Source: an uncultured bacterium
GTDB taxonomy: Bacteria; Abyssobacteria; SURF-5
Reading direction: 5' to 3'
Assembly (NCBI GenBank): GCA_964607485.1
Contig: CAZSKP010000006.1
Span: forward strand, 97,157-161,156
DNA length: 64,000 bases
Shown: one piece after another, positions 50,700-50,855 of the stretch
How positions within the stretch are numbered: the first letter of the stretch is position 1
How the letters are laid out: every line of letters starts with the position of its first letter
Made by a program: the position numbers and the translations under genes
The notes under the pieces: model-generated
The model's input: the letters and a program-made list of their open reading frames with translations, nothing else
Told to the model about the DNA's origin: nothing
Databases searched by the model: none

Positions 50700-50855
50700 A
50701 TGAGTTGTCCGGATTGCGGAGGAATATTGGCGATGCTGGAAGGATGTGAGCTGTGTATCAATTGCGGATGGAGTCCGTGCTTTTCGGCGCATCCGTTTGG
50801 CGAAGGCTCGGGGAACCCGTCGATTGACTGTTCGGGCCAGGTTTTCCGAGCCTAG
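50700..50855 (+). CDS. 51-aa zinc-ribbon microprotein resembling the C-terminal Cys module of class II ribonucleotide reductase (NrdJ)
   Basis: Translated by hand: [51 protein letters not shown]. Purine-rich SD (GGAAGGGGG) upstream; 35 nt after the lexA stop; below the ORF-track cutoff. Confidence 0.65.
   Translation: [51 protein letters not shown]

Follow-up and report, generated by a model that had tools for sequence, protein, structure and literature searches.

A 51-amino-acid (aa) open reading frame (ORF) lies directly behind lexA in a 64,000-nucleotide (nt) stretch of DNA from an uncultured bacterium (GenBank assembly GCA_964607485.1, contig CAZSKP010000006.1, positions 97,157 to 161,156 of the forward strand; this whole stretch is called the window below). 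The ORF, which starts with ATG on the plus strand and occupies 50700..50855 in the ORF listing of the window, is a genuine gene under strong purifying selection. Judging from its sequence, the encoded microprotein is a zinc ribbon homologous to the terminal six-Cys finger of NrdJ, the B12-dependent (class II) ribonucleotide reductase (RNR), followed by a disordered and fast-evolving tail. The six-Cys module itself is already known; what appears to be new is a free-standing, selected microprotein locked to one lexA paralogue, together with an operator-like element on its 3' side. Literature searches found no lexA-linked zinc ribbon and no such 3' operator-like element, the term "stand-alone" was absent from PMC9669993, and a full-text literature search returned no publication joining LexA and Poribacteria, the group compared here.

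That the ORF is translated into a constrained protein is indicated by the codon-position variation of its core together with low dN/dS ratios (omega). The codon-position analysis used the six lexA-linked genome copies, with a second copy in genome G004 disregarded. Within the 28-codon core, variable columns were found at 26/28 third positions, 10/28 first positions, and only 6/28 second positions. Genomes G003 and G009 differ in this core by 13 synonymous and 0 non-synonymous changes, and omega was between 0.05 and 0.17 in the 6 of 15 genome pairs with a computable dS, the remaining 9 pairs being saturated. A dN/dS comparison had been proposed in a preliminary description of the locus made from the sequence alone, and these values are its outcome. 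An overlapping minus-strand ORF was also considered as the true coding frame and was ruled out by the codon-position signature.

The gene is conserved together with its position. Our sample consisted of 11 species genomes of Poribacteria, with the window's own genome designated G000; within the genome collection searched, the closest LexA relatives come from "Candidatus Poribacteria" metagenome-assembled genomes, at 75% identity. Small ORFs with 59 to 80% identity over the first 31 to 43 residues are present in five other genomes of the family (G003, G009, G004, G005, and G007), and a weaker orthologue was found in G010, the single genome of a second family in the same class. In all 6 family genomes with an orthologue, as well as in G010, the microprotein gene lies directly 3' of the same lexA paralogue and on the same strand, the G005 contig starting within lexA. 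In a metagenome scan, all three contigs with a strong match (L130 to L132) carry a 72 to 78% identical lexA immediately 5'. Conservation downstream of lexA, which the preliminary description had singled out for checking, was thus borne out in each of these sets. The genes outside the lexA-microprotein pair vary: in G003, G009, and G004 they are convergent, and in G007 a transporter-like gene runs in the same direction. The spacers between the two genes measure 35 to 217 nt overall and 35 to 138 nt in the six family genomes, and they are unalignable between genomes; despite this, a GGAG-type run stands 8 to 10 nt ahead of the ATG in all six family genomes. When 80 loci of the nearest LexA relatives were searched in six frames with a six-Cys regular expression, such an ORF was recovered in 2/80, both from Poribacteria. 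G004 additionally carries a second, diverged microprotein copy (L124, C95:21536-21622; MKCPCCGG...) at a contig end and away from lexA, with no operator-like repeat nearby and with an upstream gene that by appearance resembles an alpha/beta hydrolase.

In the window, the microprotein ATG begins 35 nt past the lexA stop (gap 50665-50699), and a purine-rich Shine-Dalgarno-like run, GAGGGAAGGGGG, ends 9 nt upstream of it. The ORF, its Shine-Dalgarno run, and the 35-nt gap were all found as first described, with the same sequence. At this length the ORF falls below the usual 60-aa default for ORF calling. The features of the locus are as follows.

49980..50008, plus strand: lexA promoter, with TTGACT (-35), a 17-nt spacer, and TATACT (-10); 10/12 in the promoter scan.
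49985-50002, plus strand: direct repeat TTTCGCC-N4-TTTCGCC (box 1, putative LexA operator), inside the -35/-10 spacer.
50047..50664, plus strand: lexA, 205 aa, the microprotein-linked paralogue called lexA1 here; 206 bits against TIGR00498 (cut-off 110.95), domains LexA_DNA_bind and Peptidase_S24.
50679..50690, plus strand: Shine-Dalgarno-like purine run, 9 nt before the ATG.
50700..50780, plus strand: microprotein core, codons 1-27, beginning M-S-C-P-D-C-G-G and containing six Cys; supported by alignment, selection, an AlphaFold2 (AF2) model, and the match to NrdJ 749-774.
50781..50855, plus strand: variable tail, residues 28-51, predicted disordered, plus the stop codon; supported by alignments and AF2.
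50865..50898, plus strand: decayed 3' element (ATTTATGYC..CAT-TTTCGCT...), first half-site (50881-50887) intact and second degenerate.

The six Cys follow the pattern C-x2-C-x9-C-x2-C-x2-C-x4-C and are invariant in 13/13 aligned copies, and P4, G15, G23, and W24 are also kept in all 13. Past residue ~28, the tail is divergent in both sequence and length. AF2, run without metal, modelled residues 1-27 as a confident beta-hairpin ribbon, with predicted local distance difference test (pLDDT) block values of 88, 87, and 77 over residues 1-30, and predicted a disordered tail, with pLDDT below 50 at residues 34-43 and 45-51. The best NCBIfam match was NF006417 (B12-dependent RNR), which aligned residues 2-27 with model positions 733-758/759 (E 4.5e-4, 18.6 bits); with no more than 26 residues able to match, this score is far under the whole-protein cut-off (961). 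In an hhalign comparison with an alignment of eight Poribacteria NrdJ proteins, residues 2-27 fell on NrdJ 749-774 without gaps, at 46% identity (90% probability, E 1.6e-6). The earlier assignment of the ORF to the NrdJ-type six-Cys module is supported by both comparisons and by a Cys spacing that is the same as in the tail of the organism's own NrdJ. Pfam gave no family at E <= 1 except a sub-threshold IBR match, with no TSCPD or RNR match. Foldseek against PDB gave no match at E <= 0.001 and returned only generic zinc ribbons (TFS4, RPB9, S27ae, MqsA, and ZifS), a PDB sequence search gave a single weak match to TFS4, an RNA-polymerase-binding zinc ribbon (E 0.0099), and the best ESM Atlas score was 0.88, to unnamed clusters. 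Two other candidates were set aside. The HVO_0416 family zinc finger (NF041910) reached 16.2 bits against a cut-off of 80 (E 0.0072) and covered residues 2-26 only, and a weak G000 match on contig C22 is, by eye, the zinc-ribbon C-terminus of a topoisomerase-I-like protein and was counted as a generic match.

The window's genome has one full nrdJ, located on a separate contig (C17; 1213 bits, model positions 7-758/759). The C-terminus of its product, ...ACPDCGAKIEREGGCIVCRVCGFSKCN, has a Cys spacing identical to that of the microprotein, and the near-invariant six-Cys tail is retained in 8/8 Poribacteria NrdJ proteins compared. The check on whether nrdJ keeps its own C-terminal module was therefore positive in G000 and in all eight. 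A tblastn search with the 775-aa NrdJ against 10 lexA-microprotein loci matched only the six-Cys segment, over 25 to 37 residues at 35 to 48% identity; no other NrdJ similarity was found at these loci, all remaining matches having E >= 1.6. Since the NrdJ tails are intact and the flanks hold no nrdJ, the microprotein is neither a decayed nrdJ 3' end nor a substitute for a lost tail. The stand-alone nature suggested in the preliminary description stood, and the gene-remnant reading was rejected on the tblastn result at 10 loci together with purifying selection.

The finger of the NrdJ cysteine-rich domain (CRD), as described by Loderer et al. 2017 (PMC5704485) and Burnim et al. 2022 (PMC9669993), has the same motif, C-x2-C-x9-C-x2-C-x2-C-x4/5-C. 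Outside the Cys, both the NrdJ finger and the microprotein have P following Cys 1, G following Cys 2, G preceding Cys 3, and G-x-S following Cys 5. The microprotein finger is free-standing and N-terminal, with a 24-residue tail behind it, whereas the NrdJ finger is the extreme C-terminus of a ~775-aa enzyme; unlike the NrdJ CRD, the microprotein is encoded behind lexA and far from nrdJ. In Stackebrandtia nassauensis NrdJd, the only NrdJ carrying this module to have been studied, the finger is formed by Cys 920/923/933/936/939/945, and PMC5704485 proposes Cys 1, 2, 4, and 5 as the Zn ligands and Cys 3 and Cys 6 as a terminal redox pair. All six Cys were required there for turnover driven by tris(2-carboxyethyl)phosphine (TCEP), and electrons could cross between subunits (PMC5704485). 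In the same paper, thioredoxins and glutaredoxin were not donors and no known reductant was found, which weakens the earlier idea of a thioredoxin decoy. The share of dimeric class II RNRs with the terminal finger is 71%, and PMC9669993 says of the finger's function that it "remains to be explored". A known parallel in gene arrangement is NrdJb of the split NrdJa+b enzymes (Pseudomonas aeruginosa type), in which, as in the microprotein, the Cys-rich module is encoded by a separate gene (PMC5704485; PMC9669993). However, NrdJb is a whole CRD of 150 to 220 aa with an IscU-like domain whose partner is a tail-less NrdJa, while the microprotein is the terminal finger only, the resident NrdJ is unsplit and keeps its tail, and the gene neighbour is lexA.

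We also examined how the gene may be regulated. At the lexA promoter, the layout cTTGAC-TTTCG[CT]C-N4-DTTCGCC-TAtAaT is found in 9/9 loci with the promoter region on the contig, and the direct repeat fills the -35/-10 spacer. The SOS box of Caulobacter is given as GTTCN7GTTC in PMC9578287, and the box 1 form xTTC-N7-xTTC matches it. From these sequence features, we infer that box 1 is a LexA operator and that the microprotein is under SOS control. A consensus scan of 49700-51200 found zero terminator-like sites on the plus strand, in agreement with the earlier claim that none separates lexA from the ORF, and no promoter-like sites other than those at 49980-50008 (the lexA promoter, 10/12) and 50937-50965 (12/12). 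The spacers of 6/6 family genomes likewise hold neither a terminator-like nor a promoter-like site, so co-transcription with lexA is the simplest reading; the spacers of the metagenome loci L130-L132 were assessed by folding only. Co-transcription, as put forward in the preliminary description, is therefore plausible on the clean family spacers and the repeat at the lexA promoter, although the L130 spacer, discussed below, does not fit it. The G010 locus has a terminator-like hairpin behind lexA (-31.4 kcal/mol) and, between this hairpin and the microprotein ORF, a second repeat, which would give the ORF there its own operator. In L125 (reverse strand), the second repeat stands between lexA and the ORF.

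In most loci, a second direct repeat (box 2), with a conserved 5' extension (ATTTWTGCCCGC.AT), is situated 3' of the microprotein stop. It lies 15 to 24 nt past the stop in G003, G009, L130, L131, and L132 and 118 nt past it in G004. The coordinates of box 2 are 3927-3944 in L037, 3910-3927 in L038, 2669-2686 in L130, 1631-1648 in L131, and 1051-1068 in L132, and in L010 it is on the reverse strand ~118 nt past the stop. Box 2 was not found in G005 or G007 and is decayed in the window (50865-50898). It is without a -10 element and, in G003, G009, and G004, points towards a convergent gene. LexA looping, a roadblock, or a titration site are candidate roles for this element.

Poribacteria have two lexA paralogues, and the microprotein adjoins only lexA1. 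The second lexA of G000 is at C2:157620-158213, and this paralogue is 43 to 45% identical where it was compared (G001, G006, and G008; L126, L127, and L128). Searches of G001, G006, and G008 recovered the second paralogue only and no microprotein; no lexA was found in G002, which is 77% complete. Behind the second lexA of G006 comes a gene for a RecA/RadA-fold protein of ImuA-like appearance (RadA models, E 3.8e-5), and the TTGACA promoter upstream of the second lexA in G001 and G008 contains an AT-rich palindrome unlike the lexA1 repeat. The different upstream elements and neighbours of the second lexA suggest two separate LexA regulons. A position weight matrix (PWM) was built from 13 boxes, which themselves score 17.7 to 31 bits. 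In G000, the lexA promoter box scored 26.0 bits, the next best sites scored 22.3 and 20.6 bits, and the rest scored <=18.7 bits; mismatch and PWM scans of this genome gave no convincing second promoter. The lexA1 regulon may be very small, as strong PWM sites in G000 are few and none stands before recA or nrdJ.

Stand-alone six-Cys proteins are also found outside these genomes. A HMMER search of 1.84 billion representatives gave 46 proteins at E <= 1e-3. Of the five matches at E <= 1e-10, four look orthologous and the fifth is an ankyrin-repeat false positive. The other matches are mostly proteins of 33 to 78 aa. All 33 short matches examined of the 46 (33 to 78 aa) carry the six-Cys core; some start with the finger as the microprotein does, some add a C2H2-like finger, and several end with the finger at the C-terminus. 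Some of these short relatives may be contig-end fragments of NrdJ. Those such as P0007, P0013, and P0021 have no Pfam assignment, and in NCBIfam they match the NrdJ C-terminus best. The stand-alone metagenome and phage-like relatives share the six-Cys core of the microprotein, but the two kinds with visible context (L133/L134 and L147/L148) are not beside lexA. A phage-like contig, L133 (2393-2587, identical in L134), encodes a 64-aa protein with a C2H2-like finger and a six-Cys finger, and its neighbours are, by eye, a PD-(D/E)XK/Cas4-type nuclease, an ATPase, and an ERCC4-type nuclease. A viral scan with the microprotein alignment gave 2 loci, on the high-GC (guanine-plus-cytosine) viral contigs L147 and L148, where a 33-aa ORF at ~3998-4105, MRCPCCGGRLASGGGAC.VCP.CGWSSC, has the same six-Cys spacing; the viral scan with the L133 protein gave 0 loci. 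A word-limited protein homologue search returned 2 matches. When 401 genomes sampled across the domain were searched, matches at E <= 1e-4 turned up in 94 genomes from outside the family. In 85 of these, the match was at the end of open frames of at least 591 aa (NrdJ tails), and in the other 9, it was in frames of 163 to 344 aa; frames below 100 aa with the six-Cys motif occurred in Poribacteria only. The nine genomes with 163- to 344-aa frames (including G094, G254, and G400, of one family) have frames ending in the six-Cys motif; such frames may represent split subunits of the NrdJb type or genes truncated by a contig end.

As to function, we tentatively propose, while holding it to be somewhat short of probable, that the microprotein is an SOS-expressed redox zinc finger acting in trans on the re-reduction path of NrdJ. 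The microprotein and lexA1 would form a two-gene unit transcribed from the LexA-repressed lexA promoter, and the microprotein would accumulate once LexA is cleaved after DNA damage. By homology to the NrdJ tail, four of its Cys would hold Zn, and the third and sixth Cys would be a thiol/disulfide pair. The free finger might then act in trans as an extra electron shuttle to the NrdJ active site or, alternatively, might compete with the tethered tail for access to that site or to the NrdJ reductant; either mode would couple the synthesis of deoxynucleoside triphosphates (dNTPs) to the SOS state. The two Cys outside the Zn set are invariant in 13/13 copies, and a purely structural zinc ribbon would not need them. 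We predicted the complex of the microprotein with Zn and NrdJ residues 1-725, from which its own tail had been removed. The score was 0.37 (runs of 0.35, 0.38, and 0.37), which is weak support, with contact agreement of at least 59% and a partner pLDDT of at least 50; the best of three controls scored 0.00. The mark for this score was reached by 116/157 solved complexes and by 2/215 mismatched pairs, and it was reached at <=0.60 by only 18/157 solved complexes and by both passing mismatches; the job differs from that calibration in its custom alignments and riding Zn. The exact retention of the six Cys, the electron transfer between subunits and the missing donor described for NrdJd (PMC5704485), and the low though control-clean complex score favour a role at RNR.

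Several observations weigh against this proposal. The complex score falls in a range that is more often wrong than right, and the prediction may echo the native intramolecular tail. As the tethered tail is kept in 8/8 NrdJ proteins, a free copy has to contend with tail that is locally concentrated. Between Cys 2 and Cys 3, the microprotein hairpin is hydrophobic (GGIVAxLEG), whereas the NrdJ hairpin carries charges (GAKIEREGG), which hints at an unlike contact surface. In PMC5704485, a separate 233-residue CRD gave the truncated enzyme no TCEP-driven activity, and that CRD aggregated. Among the sequencing runs with the locus, 8 were of DNA type, from 4 studies, and 0 were of RNA. No operator-like site was found before nrdJ in 8 genomes (best PWM score, 12.5 bits) or ahead of recA in G000, and the L130 spacer, by reading of the folding output, holds a hairpin and then a T-run. 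The relatives on phage-like contigs are among nuclease and ATPase genes and not beside RNR genes. Finally, the G005 copy (L011, G005 C67) has an in-frame TAA at codon 17 that replaces a Glu codon between Cys 3 and Cys 4, the other motif residues being kept; possible causes are recent pseudogenization, an assembly error, and strain variation.

A possible but doubtful alternative is that the microprotein acts as an SOS effector on something else than RNR, such as FtsZ or the divisome, gyrase or topoisomerase, RecA, LexA, or RNA polymerase, and resembles NrdJ only through common descent of a compact fold. Gyrase inhibitors that are small zinc fingers or SOS-induced are known (YacG and SbmC). Small SOS effectors specific to a lineage often have their genes by lexA, as with sulA downstream of lexA in Pseudomonas and yneA, sosA, chiZ, and divS in Gram-positives. 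The microprotein is likewise small, lineage-specific, kept by lexA, and presumably operator-controlled. The unlike hairpin surface is consistent with another target, as are the replication/recombination-type neighbourhoods of the relatives on phage-like contigs and the best PDB sequence match, weak as it is, to the polymerase-binding TFS4; with few other good lexA1 sites in G000, the microprotein may moreover be the main output of that LexA. However, all six Cys, including the two outside the Zn set, stand at the exact NrdJ spacing in every aligned copy, and the lexA-adjacent effectors named above are division-directed proteins with either a SulA fold or a membrane anchor, whereas the microprotein is a soluble six-Cys ribbon. 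An inhibitor of the SulA/YneA/SosA/ChiZ/DivS type was rejected, as there was no SulA-fold Pfam match, no hydrophobic span was seen, and AF2 gave a ribbon with a disordered tail.

We regard as improbable a more general thiol/zinc microprotein, one that would carry disulfides, buffer Zn, or sense oxidants and so be of use under damage without being specific to RNR. The scatter of stand-alone six-Cys proteins through metagenomes, their position outside any Pfam family, and the second G004 copy away from lexA would all suit such a protein, but the strict linkage to lexA1 across saturated synonymous divergence argues for a damage-specific role, and frames below 100 aa with the motif were restricted to Poribacteria in the 401-genome sample. 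That the ORF has no function, being a chance frame or a decaying nrdJ 3' fragment captured behind lexA, is very improbable. It is short and without a curated family, and the G005 copy is interrupted, but dN/dS is far below 1, both the ATG and the Shine-Dalgarno run have been conserved, and NrdJ similarity at the 10 loci is confined to the six-Cys segment. In addition, the microprotein is only 46% identical to the resident NrdJ tail, which is itself near-invariant.

An action on NrdJ re-reduction would invite comparison with Sml1, Spd1, Hug1, and Dif1, which are small eukaryotic checkpoint-controlled RNR regulators that are removed after damage. The likeness is a possible functional analogy, in that a small, partly disordered protein tied to the damage response interferes with the re-reduction arm at the C-terminus of the RNR large subunit; there is no sequence relation, and those regulators are removed after damage, while induction is proposed for the microprotein. 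A more far-reaching version of our proposal, which we consider rather unlikely as a whole, is that one LexA paralogue controls a minimal damage circuit, with a free RNR-tail finger as its main product; this finger would dock on NrdJ or its reductant and reset dNTP synthesis, with box 2 as part of the circuit (for example, by LexA looping or as a roadblock). If this version is correct, the microprotein would be a bacterial, LexA-driven counterpart of these regulators, and the free finger would offer a handle on the missing physiological electron donor of zinc-finger class II RNRs. A natural free finger under strong selection suggests that the terminal finger can work independently, and it provides a small, tractable probe for partners. 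As a LexA-linked effector, the gene would represent a novel type, associated with only one of the two LexA paralogues of a candidate phylum, and it hints at a link between the DNA-damage response and DNA-precursor supply. For annotation, it indicates that conserved microproteins below 60 aa are overlooked next to well-known genes.

The promoter-like site at 50937-50965, downstream of the microprotein gene, is a perfect sigma-70 consensus (TTGACA-17-TATAAT). It stands ahead of an acyl-CoA dehydrogenase family gene at 50977..52731, which accordingly has its own promoter as the preliminary description had stated.

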